A DNA stretch of 64,000 nt from positions 11,060 through 75,059 of IMG/VR virus record IMGVR_UViG_3300027974_000031; one strand, 5' to 3'. Positions 332 through 25,090 of this stretch are shown one piece after another. The translations under genes were made by a program, and so were the position numbers. The stretch is from a virus. Its lineage: Duplodnaviria > Caudoviricetes. Each line of letters starts with the position of its first letter. Position 1 is the stretch's first letter. The notes under the pieces were generated by a model, which was not told the origin of the DNA, did no database searches, and saw nothing but the letters and a program-made list of their open reading frames with translations.

Positions 332-370
332 TATTAAAATATTAATGTTAAAATATTGATAAATAAATAT

Positions 371-676
371 ATGACTGAAAAATTTGATACTTTTGTAGAA
401 AGCTTGCTTTTAGAACGTTATAAACGTTGCAAAGCATCAACTCTTCCTGAACTTTCAGACAATCCTCGATATATTTTTTCTAAATGTGCTCCAAACCCAT
501 ATACTTCTGGATTTAAAAGAATTTATTACTTAAGAAGAGGTGAACCACTTTCACTTAAAAAGTGTAAAACAAATCCTCGCGTAGGAACAGCTCGTTATGA
601 AGAATGTCGTTTGGCTAAACTTGCATACATGAAAAGAATGGAAAGAAATAAAGCAATAGCTGAGAAACCAGATTAA
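371..676 (+). CDS. hypothetical late protein with CTS-like N-terminus
   Basis: TAAATA(360-365)-N5-ATG; starts MTEKFDTFVESLLLE. Confidence 0.7.
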   Translation: MTEKFDTFVESLLLERYKRCKASTLPELSDNPRYIFSKCAPNPYTSGFKRIYYLRRGEPLSLKKCKTNPRVGTARYEECRLAKLAYMKRMERNKAIAEKPD

Positions 677-680
677 GTTT

Positions 681-1871
681 ATGACAAGAAACTTTGACCA
701 ATTTTGTTCTAAATTTTTATTTGAATCTTCACGAAACAGTTGGAATCCTGAGCGATTTATGCGTGTTGTTCCGAGAGATTTATTTAATGAAGCAAAAATA
801 CTCTCAATGGTTAGTAAATTTGCCAAAGACGTTAATCAGGGTAAAATGCCAGGAGGATTTATCGGTAAACTTAATAAAAAATGGACCGTAGCATTATCGG
901 AAGGTGGAGCACTTTATATTTCGGGATTTAATTTAACATATAAAGGTCAAAAAGCAGATTTAACAATGAATTACAATGCTGGAAAAGAACATCGTTTTCC
1001 GTTACAAATAACTGTAGAAAATATGGATTTGTATAGTGCCAGTATTTATGACGAAAATGGAGAACTTGAGTCTGATATGAAACAATTTGAAGAAGCACCT
1101 GGTCCCGGTAAAATTGATATACCAGATTGGTCATCAACTATTGAAGAATTGAAAAGACTCGGTAAAATTGGTTTAAATGACAATTCAGGTCTTATGCCAA
1201 AAGATGACTCAAGAGGCTTTGCAGATAGTTTCAGTAATGGTAAAATTAACAATATAAAGGTAAACAAGAATATCACTGAAAACTTTGATCAGTTTTGTTC
1301 TAGATTTTTATATGAATCTGTTAGTGATGACGAATATCTAATGGCTGTTGATGCTGACGATATGGAAACGGCGCAAAAGATGGTGGATGAGGCGGCGCAG
1401 CGGGCAGGATATAGTGCAGAAGGATTCCACGGAACGCACAGAGATTTCACGGTATTTAATCGGCGGTTTGCATTAAAGGATCGCATCGGATTGAAACTAG
1501 ATACCGTTGGCTCATGGTTCACAGATTCTTCCAATGTCGCCAAGCTTCTCTATGGGCCAAAGGTGATGCGCAGCTATCTGTCCTTGCGGAAGCCGCTTGT
1601 GTTTGACGGCATTGGAGGATTGCAGAACCTCAGGGATGAGGTGAGTGAAGCGCATGGTGATGTCGAAACATTCAGGGAATGGGCCAAGTCTAAGGGCTAT
1701 GATGGCGTGGAGATTTCCGGCGACTTCGTTGATGGTGAACTTCAAACGATCAGGATTGTTTTCGACCCCAATCAAATCAAATCCGCCGATCCCGTCACCC
1801 GCGACGATCATGGCAATATCATTCCACTTTCACAAAGATTTGATTCTTCAAAAGACGATATTAGATATTAA
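681..1871 (+). CDS. two-module protein with C-terminal ART-like (ART-PolyVal-type) domain
   Basis: FHGT..F..F, GSWFTDS, YLSLRKPL, GYDGV, PNQIKSADPVT motifs; CTS-like tag at the N-terminus and again internally. Confidence 0.7.
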   Translation: MTRNFDQFCSKFLFESSRNSWNPERFMRVVPRDLFNEAKILSMVSKFAKDVNQGKMPGGFIGKLNKKWTVALSEGGALYISGFNLTYKGQKADLTMNYNAGKEHRFPLQITVENMDLYSASIYDENGELESDMKQFEEAPGPGKIDIPDWSSTIEELKRLGKIGLNDNSGLMPKDDSRGFADSFSNGKINNIKVNKNITENFDQFCSRFLYESVSDDEYLMAVDADDMETAQKMVDEAAQRAGYSAEGFHGTHRDFTVFNRRFALKDRIGLKLDTVGSWFTDSSNVAKLLYGPKVMRSYLSLRKPLVFDGIGGLQNLRDEVSEAHGDVETFREWAKSKGYDGVEISGDFVDGELQTIRIVFDPNQIKSADPVTRDDHGNIIPLSQRFDSSKDDIRY

Positions 1872-1885
1872 AAATAAATACCTTT

Positions 1886-2350
1886 ATGACAAGAAACTTT
1901 GACCAATTTTGTAATTATATTCTAGAAAATAATATATCATTACTGAAATTGGCTGAAAAAGATCAAGCGGGTAGAAATAAACTAGCACAATATTATAATA
2001 ATCCAAAACTATCACAATTAACTTGGCAACAAAAATTAGAACTTTTTAAAAAAGATAATAATATTCCATTAGAACAGGACGAAATATTTCCAAGTTTAAC
2101 AAAATATGTTAAAAAAATAGTTAATAAACTAGATTTTGAAAATTTAACCGACACAGATTGGAAGAATTTATTTCTTTTAGTGCAACACGCCGATGATGAT
2201 ATAAATTTTCAAAAACAAATGCTTCCGCAATTTTATAAAAAGTATGGTGAAAAGGGATACAAAACACCATATAAATATCTATATGATCGAATATCTTGCA
2301 ACGAAAACGGAACACAGAAATATAATACACAAGATCTATGTGGACAATAA
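1886..2350 (+). CDS. DUF6624-like protein with CTS-like tag
   Basis: DQAGR, LLVQHADDD, YLYDR...QKYNTQ motifs; TAAATA-N5-ATG. Confidence 0.6.
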   Translation: MTRNFDQFCNYILENNISLLKLAEKDQAGRNKLAQYYNNPKLSQLTWQQKLELFKKDNNIPLEQDEIFPSLTKYVKKIVNKLDFENLTDTDWKNLFLLVQHADDDINFQKQMLPQFYKKYGEKGYKTPYKYLYDRISCNENGTQKYNTQDLCGQ

Positions 2351-2456
2351 ACCTCGCTCATCATCAACCCCCCAACAATAGCGGAAATATCATTCCACTT
2401 TCAAGTAGATTTGATTCTTCAAAAGACGATATTAGATATTAAAGATAAATAACTTT

Positions 2457-2867
2457 ATGACTGAAAATTTTGATCAATTTTGTAATTATGTTTTAGAAGC
2501 TTGTTGGAAAGGCTATAAAAAAGTTGGAATGAAAAAGAAAGGAAAAAAACAAGTTCCTAATTGTGTTCCAGAAGAAACTGTTGAAGAAAAATCAACACCT
2601 GCATGGCAAAGAAAAGAAGGTAAAAATCCTTCTGGTGGTTTGAATAAAAAAGGTGTAGCTTCTTATAGAAAGGCAAATCCGGGTTCTAAACTTAAAACAG
2701 CAGTTACTACAAAACCTTCTAAACTTAAAAAAGGAAGCAAAGCTGCAAAACGCAGAAAGTCATTTTGCAGTCGTATGAAAGGTTTAAAAAAGAAACTCAC
2801 ATCAGCTAAGACTGCCCGTGATCCAGATAGCAGAGTAAATAAAAGTTTACGTAAGTGGAATTGTTAG
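2457..2867 (+). CDS. basic conserved T4-like phage protein (DUF6321-like)
   Basis: CWKGYKKVG..VPNCV and AWQRKEGKNPSGGLN...RRKSFCSRM motifs as in T4-like cyanophage proteins. Confidence 0.7.
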   Translation: MTENFDQFCNYVLEACWKGYKKVGMKKKGKKQVPNCVPEETVEEKSTPAWQRKEGKNPSGGLNKKGVASYRKANPGSKLKTAVTTKPSKLKKGSKAAKRRKSFCSRMKGLKKKLTSAKTARDPDSRVNKSLRKWNC

Positions 2868-3511: not shown

Positions 3512-3533
3512 AATACTATTTATTATAGCTTTA

Positions 3534-7460: not shown

Positions 7461-7472
7461 TTTAATATTTAC

Positions 7473-9899
7473 CTATATAATTTTAGAATAAAAGAAATCT
7501 CTAAAGGAATAATTTTTTTTTATTTTATTTTTTATTATTTTAGTATTAATTGGTAATTTGATAAAATACTTTTTGGCATAATTAGAAATTACAAGATTTT
7601 CTACATTAAATGCATCTATATCTTCGCTTTTTTCTAAATTTGGAAGAGAAAGTGAAGTTGCATAAGTTGCATATATAACTCCGCTTTTTTCTAAATTTGG
7701 AAAAGAAAGTGAAGTTGTATAAGTTGCACTTATATTTCCGCTTTCTTTTAAATTTGGAAAAGAAAGTGAAGTTGCATTAGGTGCATATATATCTCCGCTT
7801 TTTTCTAAATTTGGAAGAGAAAGTGAAGTTGCATTAGATGCACTTATATCTCCGCTTTTTTCTAAATTTGGAAGAGAAAGTGAAGTTGTATAAGTTGCAC
7901 TTATATTTCCGCTTTCTTTTAAATTTGGAAAAGAAAGTGAAGTTGCATTAGATGCATATATATCTCCGCTTTTTTCTAAATTTGGATTTCCGCTTTTTTC
8001 TAAATTTGAAAGAGAAAGTGAAGTTGCAATAGGTGCACTTATATTTCCGCTTTTTTCTAAATTTGAAAGAGAAAGTGAGGTTGCAATAGGTGCACTTATA
8101 TTTCCGCTTTCTTTTAAATTTGGAAGAGAAAGTGAAGTTGCATTAGATGCACTTATATCTCCGCTTTTTTCTAAATTTGGAAGAGAAAGTGAAGTTGCAT
8201 AAGCTACATCTATACCTCCGCTTTTTTCTAAATTTGGAAGAGAAAGTGAAGTTGCATTAGGTGCACTTATATCTCTGCTTTTTTCTAAATTTGGAAGAGA
8301 AAGTGAAGTTGCACTAGATGCATATATAACTCCGCTTTCTTTTAAATTTGGAAGAGAAAGTGAAGTTGCATAAACTGCATATATATCTCCGCTTTTTTCT
8401 AAATTTGAAAGAGAAAGTGAAGTTGTATAAGTTGCACTTATAACTCCGCTTTCTTTTAAATTTGGAAGAGAAAGTGAAGTTGCATTAGATGCATCTATAT
8501 CTCCGCTTTCTTTTAAATTTGGAAGAGAAAGTGAAGTTGCATTAGATGCATCTATATCTCCGCTTTTTTCTAAATTTGAAAGAGAAAGTGAAGTTGCAAT
8601 AGGTGCACTTATATTTCCGCTTTCTTTTAAATTTGGAAGAGAAAGTGGGTATTTATAATTCCAATAAATATCTGATAAATTTTTATGCTTTTGTAAATTA
8701 TATAAAAGACTAAATATTTCTCTATATTTTGCACTTTTTTGTATAAATAATTCTTTTAAATCTTTATTTTCACTGATTATATAATATTCATCCAAAGTAA
8801 ATTTTTCTTCATCATCTAAATCGCTTCGTTCTTCTAATTTTCTTATAACATTAATTTCTCGTTTTTTCCAATAACGATTTTTAATGATTGGAAATTTTTC
8901 TAATAAATCATGTGGGAGATCGTTTTCTTTTTCTGATAATGTTTTAAGAACTGCTTTTAGTTCTTTTTCAGATAATTTATATAAATCATCATTTATAACA
9001 TTTTTGATAGAAGCAAAAAGAATCATATCATCTATATTTTGTAATTCTAATATAGAATTTTTAAAATATATCTTTTCATAAATTTGTTTTTCACGTCCTT
9101 CAATCGGAACAGGAACAAATACATTTTGATTAAATGCTTCTGATAAACTTGGATATGTAGAAATAATTTTATTTTTTGTTGATTTAATATCAGTGTTATC
9201 TTTGACATTATTATAAGAATATTTTGTAACTCCATTATCATCATATGCATCTACAAGTATATATCGGTTTTCAGATTTTAACCATACAAAATAAGTTGTT
9301 AATGATTTTTCCCATCTATAAAAATTATAATAATAAAATGAACTAGAACCTGAAATACATAAATCTGAACCTTTTCCATAATTTTTACAATTGTTTTCAC
9401 TAGAAACAGGATCACCTGTATTTGCTAAAACTACTATTACTTTATCATCTTCATAAACTTTATTCGGATCGTCGCTTGAACCAGCTTTTATTTTAGATTC
9501 ATCTCCTTTCATTTCAGAGTGAACTTTTTCTGAAAAATCTATATAACTAGAAGAAGATTGTAATATTTTATTATTAGTTAAAGACTGATATTTAATATAA
9601 TTTGTATAATCATCGTCTATAACGTTTGTCGGAATATTAGGATCATAAAGTCGAACAAGTTCTTTTAAATCACTAAGATTTTTATCTTTAGGATTATTAT
9701 TTTTAACTATATTTTCTAAAGAAGAAATTATCGGATTCCATTTATCTCTTAACTGATTTATACTATCAATATTCTCTGGTTTATTTTTATTTTTAAATAC
9801 TTGAAAACCTAATTCTTTTTGTATAATATTGTTAAATATTTCTGCTTTTGTAGAATTTGCATCCTCTGTTAATAGATTATAAAAACTTTTAAAATTCAT
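7473..9899 (-). CDS. CTS-tagged protein with PcfJ-like segment and 22-aa LRR-like repeats
   Basis: MNFKSFYNLLTED start; YGKGSDLCIS motif; about 15 SLSLPNLEKSGxIxAxxAT units. Confidence 0.75.
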   Translation of the reverse strand: MNFKSFYNLLTEDANSTKAEIFNNIIQKELGFQVFKNKNKPENIDSINQLRDKWNPIISSLENIVKNNNPKDKNLSDLKELVRLYDPNIPTNVIDDDYTNYIKYQSLTNNKILQSSSSYIDFSEKVHSEMKGDESKIKAGSSDDPNKVYEDDKVIVVLANTGDPVSSENNCKNYGKGSDLCISGSSSFYYYNFYRWEKSLTTYFVWLKSENRYILVDAYDDNGVTKYSYNNVKDNTDIKSTKNKIISTYPSLSEAFNQNVFVPVPIEGREKQIYEKIYFKNSILELQNIDDMILFASIKNVINDDLYKLSEKELKAVLKTLSEKENDLPHDLLEKFPIIKNRYWKKREINVIRKLEERSDLDDEEKFTLDEYYIISENKDLKELFIQKSAKYREIFSLLYNLQKHKNLSDIYWNYKYPLSLPNLKESGNISAPIATSLSLSNLEKSGDIDASNATSLSLPNLKESGDIDASNATSLSLPNLKESGVISATYTTSLSLSNLEKSGDIYAVYATSLSLPNLKESGVIYASSATSLSLPNLEKSRDISAPNATSLSLPNLEKSGGIDVAYATSLSLPNLEKSGDISASNATSLSLPNLKESGNISAPIATSLSLSNLEKSGNISAPIATSLSLSNLEKSGNPNLEKSGDIYASNATSLSFPNLKESGNISATYTTSLSLPNLEKSGDISASNATSLSLPNLEKSGDIYAPNATSLSFPNLKESGNISATYTTSLSFPNLEKSGVIYATYATSLSLPNLEKSEDIDAFNVENLVISNYAKKYFIKLPINTKIIKNKIKKNYSFRDFFYSKII
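7610..8650 (-). repeat. 66-bp tandem coding repeat (LRR-like)
   Basis: ccgcttttttctaaatttggaagagaaagtgaagttgc recurs every 66 bp. Confidence 0.95.
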
Positions 9900-9907
9900 A
9901 AAACTAT

Positions 9908-11659
9908 TTACCCAATAGTTATTCTATCCACAAAGTTTTTATTGTTTAAGAAAGGAAATTGGAAATTTTCTAGCTTTATTGCTGTAGGAGTTTGAGAAAC
10001 TGTTACATCAAAATAAACAGGATTCCAATTAACCATTTTAATTCCTTCTAAAAGAATATTTGATATTTTGTTACGAGTATAAATCTGACTAACTCCATCA
10101 ATATTTAAAAGATCTGCATTTAATTGCTGTATATTAATCGTTCCGCCTAAAAAGTTCTTCTCTACTGAAAAATAATCAACAATAACAGATTGTATATCAC
10201 TTTTAATACTAGAATCACTACGGCGATTATTCTGTTTTTTAATTACATATATTTCTGAGTTATTAATGTCCGTTTTTGTAATAGCGTTTTCTGTTTGAAT
10301 GTAAATGTCAAATGCGATATATACAGGATCAGAAACAATAGTTTCAGAAGTTAAAACTTGCTCGTCTCTTATTGTATCAATAATAAGAGTTTTTTGAGAT
10401 GGTGTTAAGTATGAAAGTGTTGATTTAATAGTTTTTGGAACGCCAAAAATATAAACATTATTAAATGCGCAGGAATCAGAAAAATTAACTTGATTAAACA
10501 ATGCACGACTCTCATATTGCGGTTTTGTTAAACCTATATTGTAATAATATTTTAAATACGAATCAAGATACTCACTATTATTCATCACTTTAACGTCTTG
10601 AACAATATTAGAAAAATTGCTTTTTACAAAAGTTTCATATGCTTTTTTAGTTGAAACATTAAATTGTGAACGGAAAACTCCTGGTGCATTTTTTCTAATA
10701 GATAAAATACTTTCTGGTTCAGTAAAATATGTACTTGAAAATTTATTACTAAAGCTCAAATATTGTATTTGGCTGTTTGTCAGGTAAGTTTTATTTTCTT
10801 GATTTAAAATAGTTTGCAAATTATTAGAAACTAATTGAATCATTTTACGTCCAACTAATCCGCCACTTCCTATTTCTCCGTTACTGCCATTTGATACAAG
10901 ATAGTATATTAAAACACGATTACTAGTTGTTAGTTGTTTACCGTTAATGTTATCACCGAATTTTATCTCATATCTTTTGTTTTCATTGAAACGTAATTCA
11001 TAAACTTTATCTTCTGAATTATTCAAGTAAAGAGATTGAGTTTTATCCCATTTTTCCCAAACATTGTCAGTCTGAACATAAACATCAATTGTAAAATTAT
11101 CAACAAAAAGAGTATCATCTACAGTTAAGTGAACAATTTCGTTTGGAGTTCCAGCAGGAGTAAAAACCGGAAATTCCGTAAAAGTTCCTTGATATAAGGA
11201 TGCATCACTATCTATACCGTTTATTTTTTCAAGAGTTCCATTTTTTGTTTTTGTAAAAGATAAATCATCACTTAAGCTATAGTTAATTCCGCCAATAGTA
11301 ATATTAGAATATCTAGGAATATTATAAAAACCTGCATTTAAATTGTTTGCAGACATTGAGAATGAAACACTTGCAGTTTGATAACCAACTGGATTATAGT
11401 TAAGTTCTTTAACAATTCTGTTTATATTTTCGTAAACAGTTGTTTCTGAGAATTGACCATTTACAGAGTTTTGGTTAAGATAATAAAGAAGCAATGAAAA
11501 GCTCATAGCAATCGAATCATTGATTGCTGCTAAGTTAGAACCTTCGTAGTTTTGATCTGTAAAAATTCCAGTTTGATCTAATCTATCTTTTATTTTTTCT
11601 TTGATAGTTAAACCGTCAAATGCTACATATGCGTCTTTTGGTACTGGAAAATCGTTCAT
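9908..11659 (-). CDS. gp6: baseplate wedge protein, T4 gp6-like
   Basis: FTDQNYEGSNL...LLYYLN, ELNYNP, YEIKFGDNINGK, ESILSIRKNAP motifs. Confidence 0.85.
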   Translation of the reverse strand: MNDFPVPKDAYVAFDGLTIKEKIKDRLDQTGIFTDQNYEGSNLAAINDSIAMSFSLLLYYLNQNSVNGQFSETTVYENINRIVKELNYNPVGYQTASVSFSMSANNLNAGFYNIPRYSNITIGGINYSLSDDLSFTKTKNGTLEKINGIDSDASLYQGTFTEFPVFTPAGTPNEIVHLTVDDTLFVDNFTIDVYVQTDNVWEKWDKTQSLYLNNSEDKVYELRFNENKRYEIKFGDNINGKQLTTSNRVLIYYLVSNGSNGEIGSGGLVGRKMIQLVSNNLQTILNQENKTYLTNSQIQYLSFSNKFSSTYFTEPESILSIRKNAPGVFRSQFNVSTKKAYETFVKSNFSNIVQDVKVMNNSEYLDSYLKYYYNIGLTKPQYESRALFNQVNFSDSCAFNNVYIFGVPKTIKSTLSYLTPSQKTLIIDTIRDEQVLTSETIVSDPVYIAFDIYIQTENAITKTDINNSEIYVIKKQNNRRSDSSIKSDIQSVIVDYFSVEKNFLGGTINIQQLNADLLNIDGVSQIYTRNKISNILLEGIKMVNWNPVYFDVTVSQTPTAIKLENFQFPFLNNKNFVDRITIG

Positions 11660-11667
11660 AATATTAT

Positions 11668-13588: not shown

Positions 13589-14056
13589 TTACAGTTTATT
13601 TATAACTTTATCTGAATTCCAAATCACAATTTCGGACAGTTCTCCTTTATGATAATAAAAAATACAATCATAACCTTGTTTTATTGCGCGAGAACTTATT
13701 TCTTTTCCTAAGTATCCACTTTTTTCTTCTACTTTTTCAACTAAATTTTCGGCTTTTTCTCTAGGCAACCCTAATATTTCTAAAGCTTGTATACATGGAT
13801 GAATTCGCATATCATATAAAGAATGTATTTTTAATGGATTTTTAACATTTAAATATGCTTCAGAAATATTAGAACCTGGTTCACTTGCATATCTTAAAGC
13901 AATTTCTTTTTTAGGAGTAAAATATGCACCTGTTCCTAATGCACCTCTATCCATTTTTATAGGAGAGATTCCGTCCCATTTACCGCCATGATAAAAGGGA
14001 CCGTAACCTTCACTCTCGTTTTCTAAAAAAAGATTATAAAAATCCTTAAAATTCAT
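13589..14056 (-). CDS. ART-like protein, CTS-tagged
   Basis: FYHGG, GAYFTP, A.RYA, YLNVKNPL, GYDCI, EIVIW. Confidence 0.7.
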   Translation of the reverse strand: MNFKDFYNLFLENESEGYGPFYHGGKWDGISPIKMDRGALGTGAYFTPKKEIALRYASEPGSNISEAYLNVKNPLKIHSLYDMRIHPCIQALEILGLPREKAENLVEKVEEKSGYLGKEISSRAIKQGYDCIFYYHKGELSEIVIWNSDKVINKL

Positions 14057-14575
14057 TTAGTTATTTCCGCCGTTTGTTCTTGTTCCTTTTGGTTGTTTTC
14101 CTTTATTATACTCATTGTCTAAATTTTTAGTTTTTACAATGTTATTTTTCTGAACAATATCAGGATCAATTGGTTGTTGCATTACATACATTGGCTCAAC
14201 AGTCATTGATAAAATACTTGTAGGAACAGTGATAGGAGCATAATAAAGACCAGGAACTTTATGAGAAACAAGATCAGCTTCTTCGAAATTATTTGGTGCG
14301 GTTTCTGACATAAATGCAGATGTAGGCTTTACAATCTTAAGTGCAGATACATAAAGAACAGTTTTATTTTTAGACATAAGAATTAATTGATTATAGAAAG
14401 GTTCGCCTCTTTTCATAATTATTTCTTTTTTAATATCAGGATTTTTAATTGCTTTAGGACAAATAACTACAAAACTGCCACCACGAATGGATGTTGGATT
14501 GTAGTGTTCTAATACAGGTTGAAAAATATTTTCTGGATTGTATTTTTCTAAAAGCTTTTGGGTTTTACTATTCAT
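14057..14575 (-). CDS. hypothetical late protein
   Basis: ORF with TAAATA upstream. Confidence 0.6.
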   Translation of the reverse strand: MNSKTQKLLEKYNPENIFQPVLEHYNPTSIRGGSFVVICPKAIKNPDIKKEIIMKRGEPFYNQLILMSKNKTVLYVSALKIVKPTSAFMSETAPNNFEEADLVSHKVPGLYYAPITVPTSILSMTVEPMYVMQQPIDPDIVQKNNIVKTKNLDNEYNKGKQPKGTRTNGGNN

Positions 14576-14616
14576 AATTATATTTACTTATTTTTCTTGC
14601 ATGATAAATAGATTTT

Positions 14617-15084
14617 ATGATTAATATTACAAATCTTAGCAGTAAAAATTCTGGAAGAAATTATATTTTCTCCGACTTAAACTTACAATTTTTACAAAAA
14701 CAAGTTTCAGGTAATAAAAAAAATAATGATGTATCTCCTGGAATTGATATAGTAGTAGATTATGATCGTGAAGCAATTGAAAATTCAATTTATAATATTC
14801 TTTTTCAAAAACGTTATCTTACTGAAATGGATGTTAATCTTAAAGCGTATATAGGCCAACCTATATCTGAATTTCGTGCAATTGCTATTGGTGAAACAAT
14901 TGAAAGAGCATTATTTTTATACGAAAATAGAGTATCTCTTGAAAAACTTTATATTTACCCTAACACAGATCAATCAACTTATTTTATTTCAATGATTGTG
15001 CGATTTATAAATTTTAATAATTCCTCAGTTAAATTAAATGCATCTCTTACACAAAACGGAGCTTTCACATTTATAAATAAATAA
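14617..15084 (+). CDS. gp25: baseplate wedge protein, gp25-like
   Basis: FSDLNL, D.EAIENSIYNIL, IERAL..YENRV. Confidence 0.8.
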   Translation: MINITNLSSKNSGRNYIFSDLNLQFLQKQVSGNKKNNDVSPGIDIVVDYDREAIENSIYNILFQKRYLTEMDVNLKAYIGQPISEFRAIAIGETIERALFLYENRVSLEKLYIYPNTDQSTYFISMIVRFINFNNSSVKLNASLTQNGAFTFINK

Positions 15085-15086
15085 AA

Positions 15087-16961: not shown

Positions 16962-17053
16962 TAAATTCTTATTTCTCTAATATGGAAAATTATTTAAATA
17001 GTTATATGGAAAGCCTTTTAGATGATGCTGTTGGTAAAGTGTTTATTATGTAA
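16962..17053 (+). pseudogene. C-terminal remnant of a paralogue of 17539-18381
   Basis: YFSNMENYLNSYMESLLDDAVGKVFIM* aligns with YLSNIERELEYNIDDALNAVIGDIFVM*. Confidence 0.55.
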
Positions 17054-17055
17054 AC

Positions 17056-17472
17056 TTATTTTCCATCATTATGTACTTTATTATTTATAACATCTATTAA
17101 TTTACTTTTAAAATCATTAAATGTAAACTGAAAACCTCCATAACCTCTATATCTTTTTTCTAGTTCATATATAGTTTTTTGATAAGCATATGTTGGAAAA
17201 ATTCTCTTACCAGGAGGAAAATTAAATGACGAGATTTCATCTTGTACTATCTTTTTTAAACGTTCTACGTGTATAGGGTCATTTAAATCTGCATATTTTC
17301 TAGAATCTTTAAACTCTTTCCGTATATTATTTAATATTGCTGGATTTTTTGCATTGCGTTTTATACCGGAAATAATTTTTTCATGTTCATCGTCTTCATA
17401 TGGGTCGTTTGGATCACGAAAACTTTCCATAATCATATTATATAACTTTTCGAATTTACTATTAAATCTCAT
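17056..17472 (-). CDS. hypothetical CTS-tagged protein
   Basis: MRFNSKFEKLYNMIMES; TAAATA upstream. Confidence 0.65.
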   Translation of the reverse strand: MRFNSKFEKLYNMIMESFRDPNDPYEDDEHEKIISGIKRNAKNPAILNNIRKEFKDSRKYADLNDPIHVERLKKIVQDEISSFNFPPGKRIFPTYAYQKTIYELEKRYRGYGGFQFTFNDFKSKLIDVINNKVHNDGK

Positions 17473-17538
17473 AAATTATATTTATCTATTTTAAATTTTT
17501 TTAAAAAAATAGTTGTAAACTAATCTATAAGTAAGTTT

Positions 17539-18381
17539 ATGACTTTTAAAGATTTTTTAAACTATTTTTTATTACATGAAGATTCTATCGAAAACATAGA
17601 ATTAAAAGGTGATTGGGATTCTAGTAAACAATATGGTTGGAACAAGGTTGACACAGGAATATTAAAATCACCAAAAGGTTTAGAAAGAATAAAAACTAAA
17701 TGGAAAATAAATCAACCTGTTGATATTTATTTAGTAAAAGATAAAAATGCTCGTAAATTTGTTGAATTAGGTAAAGTATCATTTGATTTTATAAGAGATG
17801 AAATGGGTTTAGATATACTCCCAGATAGCGATCATATAACAATTATTTATACACAAAATACAGGAGCAGAAAAAATTCCTGCTACACCTTGGACTCTTGC
17901 ACACCGTTTTGGACATGCATTAGCAAGAGTAAACGGGATGGGAAGAAGTAATGATCAGTATAAATATATTGAAGAAGTTGTTGATCGTTTGTTTCAAACT
18001 ATTGCTGATGAAGTTTATAGAACAAATATTCTAAAAAGAGGATTTGTGTCACAAACAAATAGTAAAATTCGTAAAGAATTAGGTCATGCACTTGGAACAT
18101 TTAAAAGCGCAAGAGATCGTCGTTTACGTGCAGACTTTGAATTTGTAAATGAAATTATTGCTCAGTATATTATTACTGGTAAGGTAAAACTTAATCATGA
18201 TTTTCCAAGAGTTTTACCTCTTCGTTATGCTTGGGGGCAACCTTCTGGAATGTGGAGAAAACCACTTTCAGAAAAAGACAAAGCAGACTTAGATATTTAC
18301 CTTTCTAACATAGAAAGGGAATTAGAATATAATATAGACGATGCTTTAAATGCGGTAATAGGTGATATTTTTGTAATGTAA
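17539..18381 (+). CDS. CTS-tagged protein with zincin-like HRFGH motif
   Basis: TAAGTA-N5-ATG; TPWTLAHRFGHAL; downstream E..NE..AQY. Confidence 0.6.
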   Translation: MTFKDFLNYFLLHEDSIENIELKGDWDSSKQYGWNKVDTGILKSPKGLERIKTKWKINQPVDIYLVKDKNARKFVELGKVSFDFIRDEMGLDILPDSDHITIIYTQNTGAEKIPATPWTLAHRFGHALARVNGMGRSNDQYKYIEEVVDRLFQTIADEVYRTNILKRGFVSQTNSKIRKELGHALGTFKSARDRRLRADFEFVNEIIAQYIITGKVKLNHDFPRVLPLRYAWGQPSGMWRKPLSEKDKADLDIYLSNIERELEYNIDDALNAVIGDIFVM

Positions 18382-18398
18382 TATTTATAAGTATTTCT

Positions 18399-19148
18399 AT
18401 GACTCCTAAATTTAACTTATACGTAGAAAACCTATTAAGAGATGTTTTAATCGAAAGTGTTTCATTTTTTGTTGATAGTGAAAGCACTCCGAATCATGTG
18501 TATGAAGTAGCATCTCGTATTCTCTATTCACCAGAATTGAGTAAATTTTTTAATGGTTTAATTAAGAGAAAAAAAATATCTCAAGAAGAATATAAATATT
18601 TTTTAGATAATAAAAGTTTCAATTTCATAACACTTGATGGTTATGCTACTGATGAAAAAAAAGGAAATATTAATTTATATACAAGAGCAGTTCCTTCTCA
18701 AATTATTGCTGATTTAGTTTCTTTTATAAAATATTACATAGTTGAATTTAATGCAGAATTAACAGGAGAACCTTATCAAGAAAAATCAAAATCAAGAGAT
18801 TCAGATGTTATTCGATTTCCAATAAAAATGAAAGAGGAAGTTGAGAATCCTCCTGAATTAAATCTTGCAAATGCAACTGCCCGTGCATTAATCATTGATA
18901 TATTAAATTATCCTGATGAAACATTAGAAACTTATGAATCGCTTAATGCAAGAGAATTATTGATGAGAATAGAAACTATTGAAGATAATGATTATATCTT
19001 AGATAAAGGCGTAAGACCAGAAGATATAAATGGTAATAAAATTGATATTGGATTGAGTAAAGAAAGAATAAAAACACTACTAGATGCTCTTAAAAATTTA
19101 ACAGAGTATGCTATTCAAAATCACTATACATACATCAATTTATCATAA
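18399..19148 (+). CDS. hypothetical CTS-tagged protein
   Basis: TAAGTA-N5-ATG; ...VLIES. Confidence 0.65.
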   Translation: MTPKFNLYVENLLRDVLIESVSFFVDSESTPNHVYEVASRILYSPELSKFFNGLIKRKKISQEEYKYFLDNKSFNFITLDGYATDEKKGNINLYTRAVPSQIIADLVSFIKYYIVEFNAELTGEPYQEKSKSRDSDVIRFPIKMKEEVENPPELNLANATARALIIDILNYPDETLETYESLNARELLMRIETIEDNDYILDKGVRPEDINGNKIDIGLSKERIKTLLDALKNLTEYAIQNHYTYINLS

Positions 19149-19156
19149 ATACTTTT

Positions 19157-19648
19157 ATGAATTTTAAAAAATTTTATAAATTAATAATAGAATCTGTTGA
19201 AGATGAAATAATTTCTCAAAAAGGAGAATATCATTTAAGCAGTGGTACAAATTCCATGTTTTTCGGAAACGCTGGTGCAGGTGTATTAATATATTGTACA
19301 CAAACAAAACGTTTTCTTTTAGGATTACGATCAAGACTTGTTAATGAACCTGGAACATGGGGAACTTTTGGTGGTAAAATAGATAATGATGCTGATCCTA
19401 AATCTGCTGCACGTCGTGAATTAGAAGAAGAAACAGGTTATGACGGAAACATTGATTTACAACTATTTGACATTTTTCAAAGCGGAAATTTTAAATTTTA
19501 TAATTTTTTAGGAAAAGTAGAAGAAGAATTTAAACCAAGATTAGATTGGGAAAACTCAGATGCACAATGGTTTTCTCTAGACGAGTTTCCAAGAAATTTA
19601 CACTTTGGTACAAAAAGATTATTAGAAAAATTAAAAGAAATTATATGA
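19157..19648 (+). CDS. Nudix hydrolase, CTS-tagged
   Basis: Nudix box GGKIDNDADPKSAARRELEEETG. Confidence 0.9.
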   Translation: MNFKKFYKLIIESVEDEIISQKGEYHLSSGTNSMFFGNAGAGVLIYCTQTKRFLLGLRSRLVNEPGTWGTFGGKIDNDADPKSAARRELEEETGYDGNIDLQLFDIFQSGNFKFYNFLGKVEEEFKPRLDWENSDAQWFSLDEFPRNLHFGTKRLLEKLKEII

Positions 19649-20352
19649 ACTTAAGCTTTAAAAAATTTTTCTTATTAAAAGAAGATCCTGACACTGCAAA
19701 TTTTCGCATAAGAAGTAATAATTATTATGCAAATTATGCAGAACAAGAATATAATCCAATTACATTTAATGTATATAATAAAAATTTTTTAGTTTATTCA
19801 TATACTAAATTTAATTATCATAATTCTATTAGTAGAAAACTTATTGGTAGAATATTTGATCCCGTTTCGTATTACGAAACCCATCGACCATATTCTGAAT
19901 ATATTAATTTTAAAGAAAATTTTTTAAAAAATGATTTTTATTCTTCTTATTTTTCTTTTGTTAAGAATGAAACAATAAACAGAATAAAAAAAGACTTAGA
20001 AGAAGAAAATATATTTTTTATAGGAGATTTAAACAGATCTATTATACGTTCATTAGAAAAAATTCATACAGTTGAAAAATTTACAGATTCTACATTTTTT
20101 ACTGTCCGACCAGAAAATACACCAGACTTTATTCTTGGTAGAATGTTTTCAATGCCTATAAAAGAATTTCAAGACGAAACTAATGAATCTCTTATTCCAT
20201 GTTTTTCCACATGGAACAGATTAAAAGATTTAACCTCAGAAGCGGCAGAAATGATGTTAAAGTTACCACCAATTTATGATCTAGATCCAAATAAATCTAT
20301 TATTGAAAATCGAGGTCTTGAATCAAAAATGCTACGTTCTTTTATTAAATAA
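19645..20352 (+). CDS. hypothetical CTS-tagged protein
   Basis: ATGA overlap with the Nudix stop; MNLSFKKFFLLKED. Confidence 0.65.
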   Translation: MNLSFKKFFLLKEDPDTANFRIRSNNYYANYAEQEYNPITFNVYNKNFLVYSYTKFNYHNSISRKLIGRIFDPVSYYETHRPYSEYINFKENFLKNDFYSSYFSFVKNETINRIKKDLEEENIFFIGDLNRSIIRSLEKIHTVEKFTDSTFFTVRPENTPDFILGRMFSMPIKEFQDETNESLIPCFSTWNRLKDLTSEAAEMMLKLPPIYDLDPNKSIIENRGLESKMLRSFIK

Positions 20353-20358
20353 AGTTAT

Positions 20359-21258
20359 ATGAATTTTAAACAGTTTTATAAATTATACCTTGAGAGTTTA
20401 AGTGATTGGAGTGGAGAATGGGTTCACTACACAAACATTCCATATCTTTCGTTTAATCCAAAAGCAAAGCACTCTGATCCAACAGGTATTTATTTTTTTC
20501 CAAAAGAATTTAATCCTCCTAGTTCATATAGTTCTAAAAAGTATAAATTTTCTGCTAAATTAAAGCCTGATGCAAAAGTATTAGATTTTTCTAAAATAAC
20601 AAGAGAAGAAATGACTCGTTTAGCAGATTTAGCAGGAATTGAAAGATTTGTTGAAATAGATGACTTGTATTATTCTATTAGAAATGTTTTTAATATGACT
20701 AAGAAAACGAATAAAAAACCCGGTTCATTTAATCGCTTTTTTGTTAATGCTGGATATGATGCTATTTTTGATGACATAGATGTTGTTTATGGAAAAAATG
20801 AAAAACAACTTATTGTATTAAATCAAAAGTGTTTAGATGATGTGGACATGATTATAAACACATATCCAATATACGACGAAATGGTTTTCTCATCCGAAGA
20901 GATTATTAAAAGATTAACTCCTTACTCTGATAGTGTAGAAAGTTCTAAAATAAAAAAAGAAAAAGAAGATGAAATTATAAATGATAAACAAAAATTAGTT
21001 CCTACTTATGCTCTTAAAAAATATATGACTTTTAGAAAAGGTGAAAATTATGTTACGATTTTAGCAAAAAATAATAACAATAGTAAAAAAACTAATGAAA
21101 TTAGTTTTTCAATTATTTCAGATAATAATAATAATAATACAGATATTGATAGTGGTGCCAGTTACAATTACTCTAAAAGACAATGGAATTTTAATTCTAT
21201 TTCAAAAATCGTTAAAGATGCTGTTTCTATTCTTACAGGAGAAGACGACAGAATATAA
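20359..21258 (+). CDS. ART-like protein, CTS-tagged
   Basis: WVHYT, GIYFFP, AKVLD, GYDAI, QLIVLN. Confidence 0.55.
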   Translation: MNFKQFYKLYLESLSDWSGEWVHYTNIPYLSFNPKAKHSDPTGIYFFPKEFNPPSSYSSKKYKFSAKLKPDAKVLDFSKITREEMTRLADLAGIERFVEIDDLYYSIRNVFNMTKKTNKKPGSFNRFFVNAGYDAIFDDIDVVYGKNEKQLIVLNQKCLDDVDMIINTYPIYDEMVFSSEEIIKRLTPYSDSVESSKIKKEKEDEIINDKQKLVPTYALKKYMTFRKGENYVTILAKNNNNSKKTNEISFSIISDNNNNNTDIDSGASYNYSKRQWNFNSISKIVKDAVSILTGEDDRI

Positions 21259-21266
21259 GTAAGTTT

Positions 21267-23969
21267 ATGACATTTAAAGAAGTTTATAGCATTTTATTAG
21301 AAAAAGATTTCAGAAGCAAGATATTAGCTCTTGGAATGCCTCAAGATGTGGCAGATTACCTACACGGAATGAATGACAAATATTCATTTTGGTTTGCAGA
21401 TCAAATAAACAAAATGCCTGAATATCAAGCAGCAAGAAATAAAGAAATGTTTGTTCATTCTTTACAAACTGAAATGCAAGGCATTCTTGATTGGATAAGA
21501 GGAGGTGTTCAAAACCTTTCACTAAAAGATTATGACTGGAACACTGCAATAGCATCTGCTGATGAATATCATAAAAAATTAACAGTAACAAATTCTGAAA
21601 GAGAAACCAACACTATATTAAAAGAATATCCTAATGGTTTTTATTGGGTAGATTTAGAAAGTCAGTTAGATTCTTGTGAAGCTAGTGCAATGGGACACTG
21701 TGGAAGAACAAGCAAAGGTGATACACTTTATTCATTAAGAAAGTATAATATTATAGAAGATAACATTGAAAGTTCTATAACAATAGCAGTTTCACCTGAT
21801 AAAGGAATTTGGTTTCAATGTAAGGGAAGAAATAATTCAAAGCCTAAAAAAGAATATTACTCTTACATTGCAGATATACTTGTTTCTAAAAATATATTAA
21901 CATTTAAAACAGAACACGATTCTAAGAATGATTTTAAATCAAAAGATTTGATAGAGTATATAGAAGAAAATCCAAACGTTTTTCCAAACAAAGACGAACT
22001 TCTTGAAAAGATTAATGAAGACTCTATATCTGAAAGAGATTTTGAAAAAATATTAGATAGTTATAAAGAAGATTTTTCTATTTATAGTATTAATAATTTT
22101 TATGATAGTGTTGACGATAACAGTAATAATATTTATTTTCATTATGATTTTCGTTTAACAATTAATAAAAGCGAAACAAACCTTCCTATAGATTGCTTAA
22201 CCTTAAATTATAATAGTAAAGGTATAAAAGCATTAAATGACTCTTTAGATGTTTACATAATTGATGTAAGTGTTGAAGGTGATGAAGACAAAGTAACTAT
22301 AAGTGGCATCATTGAAGATACTGATAGTTTATTTAGTTTAGATGAAATTGGTTTGCGTAGTTTTGAACGTCAATGTGAATATTACAAAGAGTTAAATGAA
22401 AAATTTGATAAAGAAGAATTTTTAAAAGAAAAATTAGAAAAAATACTTTATCTTGATGATTGTATAGAAATAAAACGCGATTCTTTTGAAAAAGATGTAA
22501 AAAAAGAATTAGGAAATTTTTATGAGTCAAATGTTAATGAAAAAACTTTAAATTTAACAGTTCATATTAAAACTCCTAACGATTTGTTTAAAACTCCTGT
22601 AATAGAAAAATTTTCTTATAATTCTATATTAAATCATGCTGATAGTACTGTACCTACTGAAAAAGATTTTTTAGAATCTTTAGAATCTTTAGAAAATTAT
22701 AAAGATGGTGTAACAAGATATGCGGATCTTTTAGCAATTACTCTTTTTTGGCAAAGTGTTAAAAGAGATATATTAGTAGATTTTTCAAAACATATGAAAA
22801 TAGGAATAAATATGATGTATGATGTTTTATCATTTCCAATTTCATTTAATTATGAATATGAAGATAGTGATGAAATTGATTATGAATATGAGTTTCGCTG
22901 CCTTGACATTTTAGAAAATAAATCAAAAGAAATTCAAAGAAGTTTACTTTCTTTTTATAATTCAGTTTTTGTTAAAATATTAAACAACAAAGAAGAACTA
23001 AATTTTAATGAAGAAAATTTAATATTTGAACCTTCAGTAAACGATTGGGTTCATGTTACAATTAAAAAACCGTATGTTTATTTAGGAATTTTACCAAAAG
23101 ACCAATTAACAACAACTGCTATTAAAAACCTAGCAGATAGTAAAGGTTTAACAGGAGAATACGAGGCTTTAGATGTTTCACAGTTAAAGAAATGGTTATA
23201 TGATAATATGGGAAGTACGCCTATATTTCCTGGGTTTAGAGATTTTTTTGAAAGCCGAAACCGAAAATCTTCTATTTTATTTAAAGAAGGTTTAATAAAA
23301 ACATATCCTTTAGATTTAACAGTTAAAAAAATGAATGAAAAATGGGAGGATTTTTTAATACAAAATTTTGAAATTGAAAAAAACTATTTTGTAGGAACTA
23401 TTATAAAAACAAATAGATTTGACTTAGAAAAACTTAAAAAAGATGCTGAGTTTTTTGGTTATTTTTTAGGCAAAATTCATAAAAACCATACCCAATGGAC
23501 AGTTACTTTTGCACCAAAATTTGCTGAAAAAGATGAACAGTCAATAAACAGTGTTTTATATCACTTTTGTCCAAACTCTGTTTTAAATAAAATAAAAAAG
23601 ATTGGAATAACACCAAGAATAAGTACAAAAAAAGATTGGCCACATCCAGGTGATCGTTCCTACTTATTAAAAATAAATTTAAATAATATAACTCTTTTCT
23701 CTATAGAAAGAATAAATTCTTTACTTGATTCTATTGCACGCGCATCAGATTCTACTTTAGCAAATTATTCTATTATAAAAATAAAAAATGATAATGACTT
23801 AATAAAATCGTTAAGAATTGATCCTTCTTTACCAGGAAATAGAGATTCAAAAGCGTATGGTGTTTATACAAATAAAAATATACCACCATCTCTTTTTGAT
23901 AAAATTATGAGTATAGAGGAATTCCAAATATCTCTTTTTGATGAAATTATGAGTGCTAATGAAGGATAA
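21267..23969 (+). CDS. multidomain CTS-tagged protein: PcfJ-like N-terminus, ART-like C-terminus
   Basis: E...MGHCG, LYSLR, QCKGRNNSKP; C-terminal LYHFCP....I..IGITPR, DRSYL, DP, VYTNKNIPP. Confidence 0.55.
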   Translation: MTFKEVYSILLEKDFRSKILALGMPQDVADYLHGMNDKYSFWFADQINKMPEYQAARNKEMFVHSLQTEMQGILDWIRGGVQNLSLKDYDWNTAIASADEYHKKLTVTNSERETNTILKEYPNGFYWVDLESQLDSCEASAMGHCGRTSKGDTLYSLRKYNIIEDNIESSITIAVSPDKGIWFQCKGRNNSKPKKEYYSYIADILVSKNILTFKTEHDSKNDFKSKDLIEYIEENPNVFPNKDELLEKINEDSISERDFEKILDSYKEDFSIYSINNFYDSVDDNSNNIYFHYDFRLTINKSETNLPIDCLTLNYNSKGIKALNDSLDVYIIDVSVEGDEDKVTISGIIEDTDSLFSLDEIGLRSFERQCEYYKELNEKFDKEEFLKEKLEKILYLDDCIEIKRDSFEKDVKKELGNFYESNVNEKTLNLTVHIKTPNDLFKTPVIEKFSYNSILNHADSTVPTEKDFLESLESLENYKDGVTRYADLLAITLFWQSVKRDILVDFSKHMKIGINMMYDVLSFPISFNYEYEDSDEIDYEYEFRCLDILENKSKEIQRSLLSFYNSVFVKILNNKEELNFNEENLIFEPSVNDWVHVTIKKPYVYLGILPKDQLTTTAIKNLADSKGLTGEYEALDVSQLKKWLYDNMGSTPIFPGFRDFFESRNRKSSILFKEGLIKTYPLDLTVKKMNEKWEDFLIQNFEIEKNYFVGTIIKTNRFDLEKLKKDAEFFGYFLGKIHKNHTQWTVTFAPKFAEKDEQSINSVLYHFCPNSVLNKIKKIGITPRISTKKDWPHPGDRSYLLKINLNNITLFSIERINSLLDSIARASDSTLANYSIIKIKNDNDLIKSLRIDPSLPGNRDSKAYGVYTNKNIPPSLFDKIMSIEEFQISLFDEIMSANEG

Positions 23970-23977
23970 ATACTTTT

Positions 23978-25090
23978 ATGAACTTTAAAGAATATTTTAG
24001 ATTATATACAGAAGGCGCATCATCAATATTATTTCATCATACATATATTAGAAATTTAATCAAAATATTAGATACAAATAAATTTAAATTAACATTTTCT
24101 TTATCAGGAAAGCCAGATCGTGCAAACTTAAAAGATCATGCATTTTATATGAGTTTTTCACGTATTCGTTGGAGTGGATATAATCACGATTCAGGTGTTG
24201 GTTCTGTTATAATTCAAGTAGATGGTTCTAAACTTAATCAAAGATACAAAGTTGAACCGATTGATTATTGGAAATATGGTTTTGAAACTAAACTTAAAAG
24301 TGCAATTGCTGATGAACAAGAAGACCGATTAATGTATAATAAATCTTCAATCTCTGCAAGTCCTTATATTCAAAATATATCTATATTAATAAATGAAGAA
24401 TTACTACCATATGCTTCTTATATATCTGGTAAGTGCGAAGAATTAAATATTCCGTGTTATGTTTATAATGACTTTCGTGCATTTAAACTTGGAGACAAAA
24501 GAAAAATTATTTCTATAGACCAATCTATAGAACTTCCAATTGAAGAAGAATATCCACTTTCAGAATATAGATTGAAAAGTTTACGTGGTATTAAAAAGAT
24601 TATTACTAATCCATATTTGGAAAACGACGAAGATTTAGAAAAAGTTTATAAAATGCTTAGTTATTCTGATTGGAAACATTCATTAAGTACAGATTTTCAC
24701 AATATAAAAAATGATTTAAATCCAGAAGTTCGTGAAATTCTTGAATGGGTAGCACGTATGGAAAAAAGAAAAGGCAAAACAATTTTTGAATTAGTTAAAG
24801 ATGCTGGTGATAAAAGATTTAAAAGAGACAGAATAAACATGGATATACAATCGTTAAGTGGATTAATTCAGTTTATAAAAGAAGGTTCTGCACCAGGATG
24901 GGCTTCTCTAAAAAGAGAATATATCTCATCTTACATTCGCAGTTCCGAATTTTCTGATGTAGAAAAAGTTTTAAAAAAAGCAAATGAACTTTCAAAGAGT
25001 GCTCTTTCTAATGATGATTCTTCTTGGTATAAGATAGCAGATTTATTAGAAAATGCTGTAGAGATGTTAAAAGAGAAATTACCAAAGTAA
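23978..25090 (+). CDS. CTS-tagged protein with possible ART-fold N-terminal domain
   Basis: LFHHT, YMSFSR, EQEDR (H-S-ExE pattern). Confidence 0.5.
   Translation: MNFKEYFRLYTEGASSILFHHTYIRNLIKILDTNKFKLTFSLSGKPDRANLKDHAFYMSFSRIRWSGYNHDSGVGSVIIQVDGSKLNQRYKVEPIDYWKYGFETKLKSAIADEQEDRLMYNKSSISASPYIQNISILINEELLPYASYISGKCEELNIPCYVYNDFRAFKLGDKRKIISIDQSIELPIEEEYPLSEYRLKSLRGIKKIITNPYLENDEDLEKVYKMLSYSDWKHSLSTDFHNIKNDLNPEVREILEWVARMEKRKGKTIFELVKDAGDKRFKRDRINMDIQSLSGLIQFIKEGSAPGWASLKREYISSYIRSSEFSDVEKVLKKANELSKSALSNDDSSWYKIADLLENAVEMLKEKLPK

Follow-up and report, generated by a model that had tools for sequence, protein, structure and literature searches.

The tagged genes and their setting

The stretch of DNA studied here, in the following called the window, has a length of 64,000 nucleotides (nt) and represents bases 11060-75059 of the 75,059-bp virus contig IMGVR_UViG_3300027974_000031 (class linear in IMG/VR). 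According to CheckV, the contig is 29% complete, and its G+C content is about 28%. We are concerned with a group of otherwise unrelated open reading frames (ORFs) in this contig whose products start with a similar short peptide, which we refer to as the tag. Late-type genes occupy positions 1-25,100, baseplate wedge genes and a protein of 1308 amino acids (aa) among them. Non-structural genes fill 25,100-64,000 and comprise RNA ligase, ThyX, UvdE, an AAA ATPase, a PP-loop ATPase and many small ORFs. A T4-type portal gene lies directly upstream of the window (PF07230 at 2.2e-82; phrog_213). Its best match among 50,697 cultured-phage records reaches 31% identity, to cyanophages. Against the same records, neither a blastn 'distant' search with window 14001-22000 nor a tblastn search with the 900-aa tagged protein yielded a match. 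The lineage is very distant from the T-even phages, uncultured, and belongs to freshwater.

Eighteen tagged ORFs were found in the contig. An initial annotation of this DNA had reported about 15 unrelated ORFs with the same start peptide in 360-25090 and two more outside. Fifteen were indeed counted in that region, with all eight peptides it quoted in their places, and both further tags, at 40210 and 51239, were found as well. The last one starts 97 nt before the window. Within 360-25090, tagged genes start at 371, 681, 1886, 2457, 17539, 18399, 19157, 19645, 20359, 21267 and 23978 on the plus strand, and at 9899, 13575, 14056 and 17472 on the minus strand. The tagged genes and the inner tags are, with each tag followed by the residue or residues next to it:

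1..331, plus strand: 3' part of tagged ORF 1 (142 aa); start and tag MTKNFDLFVEKLINSFEE before the window, at contig position 10962; no family match
371..676, plus strand: tagged ORF, 101 aa, MTEKFDTFVESLLLE then RYKRC; relatives keep a tagged gene of 92-104 aa at the same locus
681..1871, plus strand: tagged ORF, 396 aa, MTRNFDQFCSKFLFE then S; two-gene fusion, C-terminal half ART-PolyVal (PF18760, residues 249-370)
1272..1316, plus strand: inner tag of the 396-aa protein, ITENFDQFCSRFLYE then S; ATC in place of the ancestral ATG
1886..2350, plus strand: tagged ORF, 154 aa, MTRNFDQFCNYILE then N
2457..2867, plus strand: tagged ORF, 136 aa, MTENFDQFCNYVLE then A; DUF6321 (PF19846, residues 55-134)
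7473..9899, minus strand: tagged ORF, 808 aa, MNFKSFYNLLTE then D; between the 1308-aa gene and a baseplate wedge gene
11668..13575, minus strand: tagged ORF, 635 aa, MKTLRFKTFYSLFLE then G
13589..14056, minus strand: tagged ORF, 155 aa, MNFKDFYNLFLE then N; little beyond the tag and ART-PolyVal (PF18760, residues 21-148)
17056..17472, minus strand: tagged ORF, 138 aa, MRFNSKFEKLYNMIME then S; lowest matrix score of all tags
17539..18381, plus strand: tagged ORF, 280 aa, MTFKDFLNYFLLHE then D; likely counterpart with a different tag in relative G004 (similar N-terminus)
18399..19148, plus strand: tagged ORF, 249 aa, MTPKFNLYVENLLRDVLIE then S
19157..19648, plus strand: tagged ORF, 163 aa, MNFKKFYKLIIE then S; NUDIX hydrolase (PF00293, residues 40-158; phrog_1198)
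19645..20352, plus strand: tagged ORF, 235 aa, MNLSFKKFFLLKE then D; masked by a longer ORF call, ATGA overlap with the NUDIX stop codon, no late motif of its own
20359..21258, plus strand: tagged ORF, 299 aa, MNFKQFYKLYLE then S
21267..23969, plus strand: tagged ORF, 900 aa, MTFKEVYSILLE then KDFR; N-terminal two thirds PcfJ-like, last 235 aa found elsewhere as separate tagged proteins
23232..23288, plus strand: inner tag remnant at the junction of the 900-aa protein, GFRDFFESRNRKSSILFKE then GL; low model confidence there
23978..25090, plus strand: tagged ORF, 370 aa, MNFKEYFRLYTE then G
39827..40210, minus strand: tagged ORF, 127 aa, MITFKQFFESYRME then D; late motif, amid non-structural genes; phrog_17560
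50769..51239, minus strand: tagged ORF, 156 aa, MTFNQLYNKIINE then N; late motif, amid non-structural genes; weak match to Arr-type ADP-ribosyltransferases, below cut-off

Sequence pattern of the tag

The tag lies at the extreme N-terminus and comprises 12-19 aa, mostly 12-15. The alignment follows the pattern x-F-[KDN]-x-[FLYV]-[YVCFL]-x-x-[hydrophobic]-[hydrophobic], after which 0-2 residues (nine in 18399) and a Glu are found. Column 2 of the core is Phe in 17/17 tags, and column 5 is F, L, Y or V in 17/17. The tripeptide [LIVMFY]-x-E closes the tag in 17 of the 18 cases, while 40210 has R-M-E there.

With a leave-one-out matrix of 10 columns, 15 N-terminal tags score between 9.3 and 24.1 bits, and one inner tag copy also attains at least 9.3. 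The best unrelated segment among the 4192 scored reaches 6.8 bits. Two hand-picked tags are weaker, namely 18399 with 7.9 bits and 17472 with 2.5 bits. A second rule, combining a 6-column matrix with [LIVMFY]-x-E, is passed by 17 of 657 ATG-opened frames (at least 30 aa, both strands), and all 17 are tagged genes; for the window this test is circular, as the matrix was trained on these same tags. The ORF at 40210 fails this rule, its P3 residue being Arg. In independent relatives, 6/53, 2/57 and 6/83 genes pass, and internal pass rates range from 0 to 0.0008 per gene-equivalent. That the tag is real is nearly certain, and its signal is confined to N-termini, apart from the inner tags kept in two fused proteins.

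After removal of the first 20 residues, BLASTP among 17 tagged proteins found no pair at E <= 1e-3, and thus the term 'unrelated' holds at the level of BLAST. Two tagged proteins nevertheless share the ART-PolyVal domain of Pfam. That the tagged proteins are diverged paralogs of a single family was rejected on the basis of their Pfam domains and of this BLASTP comparison.

A separate array of genes also shares its starts. Eleven paralogs of 128-233 aa start with MKETIAQ[FL]LK[VI][KT]DFPF and are found on the minus strand at 32816-35304, 47913-50475 and 53120-53518. They carry a variable number of repeats of about 21 aa (IYxENSDGYWxKxEYDxNG), a common C-terminal tail in 10/11 members, and nearly identical DNA upstream of their starts; the members tested had no match in Pfam and PHROG. 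This array was ruled out as a part of the tag system on account of its other N-terminus, the absence of the late motif, the near-identical upstream DNA and the true paralogy of its repeat-bearing members.

The upstream motif

The motif TAA[AG]TA, which we take to resemble the late promoter consensus of T4, precedes the ATG of 27 out of 101 called genes, with its end at a distance of 3-8 nt. The distance is 5 nt in 17 and 6 nt in 6 of these. It was found in 14/17 tagged and 13/84 untagged genes (Fisher p = 1.7e-7). A second copy of the motif lies 5 nt from the ATG of gene 371, so that, with 19645 counted, 15 of the 18 tagged genes carry it; 681, 14056 and 19645 are without. This bears out the initial annotation, according to which most tags follow TAA(A/G)TA-N5-ATG, including the peak at a spacing of 5 nt. 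The motif is common to the tagged genes and to the portal and baseplate genes. Baseplate genes were said to have the promoter without the tag, and this was found to be correct for the following two:

9908..11659, minus strand: baseplate wedge gene, late motif, no tag (phrog_219, E 6.5e-30)
14617..15084, plus strand: baseplate-wedge-like gene, late motif, no tag (phrog_261, E 2e-4)

The 1308-aa gene likewise has the late motif and no tag. Both tagged genes of the non-structural half, 40210 and 51239, carry the motif, and thus the tag follows the motif rather than the position. Apart from these two, the genes at 25-64 kb are non-structural and without the tag.

We call TAA[AG]TA a promoter by likeness only. 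Its fixed spacing of 5 nt to the ATG would imply either nearly leaderless mRNAs or a role in translation: as a T4-like late -10 element it would give rise to nearly leaderless mRNAs, and otherwise it would be a translation signal. The stop codon of the preceding gene often lies inside the motif, e.g., at window 19146-19156 and 23967-23977. Shine-Dalgarno sequences are not visible in this contig; the distant relatives L012 and L013 have AGGAG.

Fused genes with inner tags

Two tagged proteins are, as comparison with relatives shows, fusions of separately tagged genes. In the 396-aa protein, residues 1-196 are 78% identical to a complete tagged protein of 195 aa in relative G001, and residues 198-396 align, from the first residue, with the Met of a separate tagged ADP-ribosyltransferase (ART) protein of the same relative. 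In the 900-aa protein, residues 665-900 are found elsewhere as separate proteins starting with MNFKTYIALKE or MNFKDFYSFKE, each followed by GL. The junction tag corresponds to the tag at the head of the stand-alone forms P0012 and P0039. It is kept as GF[RK]DFFE..., ending in ILFKE or ILKE before GL, both in the 900-aa protein of the window and in the 73%-identical relative P0002.

Domains of the tagged proteins

Both ART-PolyVal matches (PF18760) are over the cut-off, with 4.4e-16 and 1.5e-12, and concern 13589-14056 and the second half of 681-1871. Each time the tag stays outside the folded domain, which spans residues 21-148 of 155 in ART-PolyVal, 40-158 of 163 in the NUDIX protein and 55-134 of 136 in the DUF6321 protein. 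In PHROGs, DUF6321 forms the C-terminal end of longer phage proteins, and the NUDIX domain also matches a part of a family annotated as portal protein (phrog_15528). A tagged protein of a relative resembles the T7 0.7 kinase (phrog_15752, 1.7e-16). No domain could be recognised in 11 of the 18 proteins. NCBIfam and PADLOC scans of the tagged proteins gave nothing useful beyond NUDIX, and Pfam at E <= 1 added only noise.

By sequence and model comparison, the 900-aa protein is best described as PcfJ-like. Pfam PcfJ matches 4/32 members of its family (best E 1e-4), Foldseek relates its model to viral models named 'PcfJ-like' down to E 2e-4, and an Atlas search gave leads below 0.9 only, which point to PcfJ as well. 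Foldseek against the PDB had no match at E <= 0.001. The AlphaFold model has a mean predicted local distance difference test score of 73.8 and renders the tag as a helix (residues 3-11) with a confidence below that of the body.

This protein has 1221 relatives among cluster representatives at E <= 1e-3. Among the best 150 of these, 45 carry a leader of 6-25 aa of widely varied sequence, and all 45 leaders end in L (31), I (11), F (2) or V (1), then any residue, then E, directly before a conserved KDHR. Some are 10 aa long, e.g., MKTYLQYLEE. In the remaining 105, the match concerns later parts of the protein, or the domain is embedded in a longer one. A lineage-specific address peptide with a conserved cut site would be expected to give such a picture.

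Relatives and head machinery

Twelve related loci were collected via the portal, with 39-87% identity, and the ten closest carry tags. In the cassette between the portal-side genes and a PAS-like gene, five tagged genes are found in the window, four in L002, three in L003, about four in L004, and one each in L007, L008 and L011. The 1308-aa gene and the baseplate wedge gene are adjacent in L008, and adjacent or nearly so in L007; in the window, the 808-aa tagged gene separates them. Two more distant relatives of about 130 kb have only three and four tagged genes. Compared with 18 tags in 75 kb, this indicates an expansion in the phage studied here.

Peptidase_S77, the family of T4 gp21, is over the cut-off in four of five relatives with 46-72% portal identity. 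A DNA pattern consisting of the motif and MNFKxFY led to 15 loci on other contigs of IMG/VR, among which at least one seems to be a chance match. An S77 protease is present in three of five such contigs, which are all three of at least 94 kb. The protease of the relatives starts with M-I-I-S-R-K-L-I-V-E. Beside it, small proteins starting with MTKKFDKF or MTSEFDK are encoded, followed by a scaffold-like protein of 296 aa with about 25 [LIVMFY]-x-E sites, and then by the major head protein (phrog_138) with a conserved [VLI]-Q-E near residue 75. A complex prediction with the 296-aa scaffold of a relative and the first 60 aa of a tagged 442-aa protein of G001 had a score of 0.00 and gave no answer, which counts neither for nor against an interaction.

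Genes of the endonuclease type occur nearby. An HNH/HTH endonuclease-like gene with the late motif (DUF7487, phrog_15137; L001:9874-10953, in the relatives L002 8877-9761 and L004 17918-19009) lies between a 639-aa portal-side gene and the tagged cassette. In G001, a homing-type endonuclease (phrog_559) adjoins the capsid gene, and the terminase gene appears interrupted.

Interpretation of the tag

We consider it likely, by analogy with T4, that the shared start represents a capsid-targeting leader of the T4 type which is removed by a protease and heads an expanded set of cargo proteins. The leader, a short amphipathic N-terminal peptide on late proteins, would bind the scaffolding core of the assembling prohead, by which the protein would become enclosed in the head. 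A prohead protease of the gp21 family would then cut after the hydrophobic-x-Glu at the end of the leader, and presumably also at the inner tags retained by the two fused genes; if so, both fusions are two-module polyproteins. The mature proteins set free in this way would exit with the DNA at infection. Within 29% of the genome, no fewer than 18 unrelated proteins, between 101 and 900 aa in length, would bear the leader. As to whether most of this cargo is delivered into the host, we lean slightly towards assuming so.

A matrix built from the tags of this phage alone ranks T4 IPI (internal protein I) joint first of 269 T4 ORFs. The initial annotation had proposed a modular system for head packaging on a larger scale than in T4. 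The system as such is supported indirectly by the CTS-like anatomy of the tag (CTS, capsid-targeting sequence), its link to the late motif, the T4-type portal, the protease, scaffold and capsid gene in relatives, the ART-PolyVal cargo, and the surplus of tags over the 3-4 in the relatives of about 130 kb. The notion that any domain can be packaged in this way is an extrapolation, and the protease, scaffold and capsid gene of the phage itself are not on the contig.

Several observations weigh against packaging and cleavage of the T4 type. The tag of 40210 has Arg at P3, and for the ORF with its start before the window the exact Glu site is ambiguous. The 75-kb contig, being 29% complete, has no match for protease (Peptidase_S77), scaffold or capsid genes, and a protease match is also missing in one of the five close relatives and in two of the five contigs found by pattern, all of them fragments. 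In the 900-aa family, LLE-KDHR could belong to the conserved fold and not be a cut site. The presumed cleavage tripeptide is not depleted in the mature cargo, with [LI]-x-E found 72 times (68.6 expected) and [LIVMFY]-x-E 140 times (130.4 expected). Therefore either the protease must depend on context or accessibility, as has been stated for gp21, or the site involves more than the tripeptide. T4 gp61.1, from an early gene cluster, ties with IPI in the matrix, and a high score alone is thus no proof of packaging. Finally, several tagged genes sit among baseplate genes, and a tail or baseplate destination is therefore compatible with their position.

This position would also suit a leader which is the protease-removed pro-sequence of virion and assembly proteins in general (degraded core or scaffold-like, tail, baseplate), most of which would not be effectors delivered to the host. 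In agreement with this, tag-like starts are found on the small proteins beside the protease of relatives, and similar sites at the N-terminus of the scaffold (MLTELKNIFE...). According to PMC5694885, T4 core proteins of that sort are destroyed and not injected, and the large share of tagged proteins without a recognisable domain would fit as well. However, a role as scaffold is hard to reconcile with ADP-ribosyltransferases, a NUDIX protein and the kinase-like protein of a relative, T4 genes for ARTs of the Alt type also adjoin baseplate genes (PMC5512222), and the recognised structural genes with the late motif have no tag. On balance, we regard a general pro-sequence as unlikely.

The potentially toxic enzymes among the cargo might suggest a signal of the late phase in the producing cell without a link to the capsid, i.e., an inhibitory pro-peptide, a degron or a localisation signal. 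Against this stand the close likeness of the leader to T4 IPI, an ending in keeping with the cleavage specificity of the head protease family that the relatives encode, and the co-occurrence of the tag with S77 protease genes; for a secretion signal, the leader is too little hydrophobic. Such a role in the producing cell appears quite improbable.

Conservation could, in principle, also act on the nucleotide or translation level, either via an A+T-rich start that aids initiation on near-leaderless late mRNAs, or via a copied cassette of promoter and start. The tag codons are A+T-rich, and the motif stands 5-6 nt from the ATG in 23 of the 27 genes which have it within 3-8 nt. The codons of shared tag residues, however, differ in 158 of 478 comparisons, close to the 184 expected from free choice under the codon usage of the contig, so that synonymous sites are near saturation. 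The DNA from -30 to -13 of the tagged genes has a mutual identity of 33%, and the leader varies in length by insertions before the first Phe. Thirteen genes have the same motif and no tag. Tags persist in frame inside the two fusion proteins, where no initiation takes place and, in the 396-aa protein, the ancestral ATG is now ATC. Codon differences, upstream divergence, length variation, motif-only genes and in-frame inner tags all argue against a copied DNA cassette and a translation-start effect. Furthermore, the final Glu and the hydrophobic pattern are left unexplained at the RNA level, and T4 IP genes have ordinary leaders of the GGA type. As judged by these comparisons, selection on the tag acts at the peptide level, and we give a nucleotide-level cause hardly any credence. 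An artefact of chance or composition in a genome of 28% G+C, where codons for Asn, Phe, Lys and Tyr are frequent, is already refuted by the matrix controls, the absence of spurious matches among the 657 frames and the internal pass rates in relatives.

Returning to the capsid-targeting leader, a more general role is conceivable, which we put forward tentatively. The CTS could serve as a plug-in address, with dozens of single effector modules per genome, each equipped with the late motif and the tag, inserted freely among structural genes and at times fused into tag-jointed polyproteins that are cut by the head protease; the late genes might be expressed from near-leaderless mRNAs. Eighteen tags in 29% of the genome would scale to about 60. 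If true, the plug-in address would be the unbundled counterpart of polyvalent proteins, and the tag a sequence-only label for the first-strike effectors of uncultured phages, such as anti-defence proteins and enzymes for host take-over.

Further features of the contig

DNA nearly identical to window 15101-25100 (at least half of the sampled words) is present in 12 public runs. Freshwater, lake water and plain metagenome are among their labels, and two of the runs may be the source. A run recorded as a lake metatranscriptome contains 0.81 of the sampled words of this region. As such, the runs are a lead to habitat and expression.

A G+C-rich island (41-57%, compared with about 28% elsewhere) extends over window 25600-28000 and may be an acquired element. 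It includes a DUF932 gene (26015-27103, minus strand). Directly upstream of this gene lies a match to the twister-P1 ribozyme (27134-27190, minus strand), which stays below threshold, scoring 37 bits where the gathering score is 67.2 (E 1.2e-5). Next comes G+C-rich DNA over about 0.8 kb, in which the ORFs are all short (114 and 124 aa). A group I intron was detected at 42251-42486 (minus strand; 79.4 bits, over the cut-off), close to a tRNA-Tyr (gta; 42616-42700, minus strand). A tRNA-Arg (tct; 41164-41241, minus strand) is also near.

Comparison with known systems

Since proteins carried in the head act before any phage gene is expressed, they are prime candidates for functions in anti-defence and host take-over; recognising them by sequence is difficult. 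A recognisable cargo leader would allow the injected arsenal of uncultured phages to be listed straight from metagenomes. For the phage studied here, such a list comprises ADP-ribosyltransferases, a NUDIX hydrolase, a PcfJ-like protein and about ten proteins of unknown fold. On the practical side, cargo-loading tags could become available for phages beyond the T-even group of E. coli. The finding joins two known strategies, the tagged internal proteins of T4 and the giant 'polyvalent' proteins. In a limited collection of literature, no paper among the matches listed linked 'capsid targeting' to cyanophages, pelagiphages, jumbo phages or metagenomes.

The closest system is the CTS of T4, which is found on IPI, IPII, IPIII and Alt and is removed by gp21. 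In the T4 record, IPII and IPIII start with MKTYQEFIAE followed by A, and IPI starts with MKTFKEFTSTTTPVSTITE followed by A. For IPIII, it was described that the first 10 residues suffice for packaging, with residues 4 and 7 involved in targeting and residues 8 and 10 in processing; an exchange of Glu for Asp abolished processing in T4 and left targeting intact (PMC9026906). In both systems, a leader of 10-19 aa stands at the N-terminus, has aromatic residues at a spacing of three and ends in hydrophobic-x-Glu. IPI (MKTFKEF...ITE before A) even shares the x-F-K-x-F core. In both, the leader heads otherwise unrelated proteins of late or late-type genes, an ADP-ribosyltransferase among them, and the T4-type portal of this phage and the S77 protease and scaffold of its relatives add to the likeness. 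The differences lie in the number of tagged genes, which is at least 18 in 75 kb here and a handful in T4, and in the cargo, which reaches 900 aa and comprises ART-PolyVal instead of the Alt clade, in addition to NUDIX, PcfJ-like and DUF6321 proteins. A tag length of mostly 12-15 aa, two fused genes with an inner tag and the placement of genes in and around the baseplate and portal modules are further differences.

T4 itself offers a further start of this kind. The hypothetical protein gp61.1 (54 aa; NC_000866 18966-19130, minus strand; locus L071) is encoded beside the primase gene and starts with MKTFKEFIKE followed by D, a near copy of the start of the IPI leader with a possible I-K-E site at residue 10.

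The variable internal-protein genes of T-even phages, for which Repoila et al. 1994 is reportedly the original paper, are similar in that a changeable set of unrelated proteins stands under one leader. The cassette described here likewise holds one to five tagged genes across relatives. While the T-even proteins are small and basic, the present set is larger and rich in enzymes. As the T-even internal proteins have been described as a diverse set with only the CTS in common (PMC3012670, PMC9026906), the principle of a shared leader is known.

In the giant phages phiKZ, 201phi2-1 and SPN3US, many head-internal proteins are processed at x-x-Glu by a prohead protease related to that of T4; paralogs with conserved N-termini occur, and a role in directing proteins into the prohead is attributed to the propeptides (PMC5694885). 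Processing of head proteins at x-x-Glu is what we propose for the present phage, too. As far as that account goes, the giant-phage propeptides are mostly longer than 100 aa and end in A/S/G-x-E, whereas the tags resemble the short leaders of T4 and have a bulky hydrophobic residue at P3.

The 'polyvalent proteins', which are predicted to be injected with the DNA, have ART-PolyVal as their ADP-ribosyltransferase clade; the prototype is T4 Alt, a packaged and injected ADP-ribosyltransferase (PMC5512222). The ART-PolyVal family (ART of the Tox-ART-HYD2 clade) and the predicted logic of virion-carried enzymes delivered with the DNA are common to both systems (Iyer et al. 2017; PMC5512222). In the polyvalent proteins as portrayed there, 2-15 domains are united in a chain that is often anchored to MuF or portal domains. 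In most tagged proteins, no more than a single domain can be recognised, and two modules are found in the 396-aa and 900-aa proteins only. Pfam and PHROGs found no MuF or portal domain in them, the portal being a separate gene, and each has a leader of its own. Implementing all comparisons, the principle of the mechanism is known from the CTS of T4, and the present phage would apply it to a much larger and enzyme-rich cargo together with tag-jointed fusions, in an uncultured freshwater lineage.

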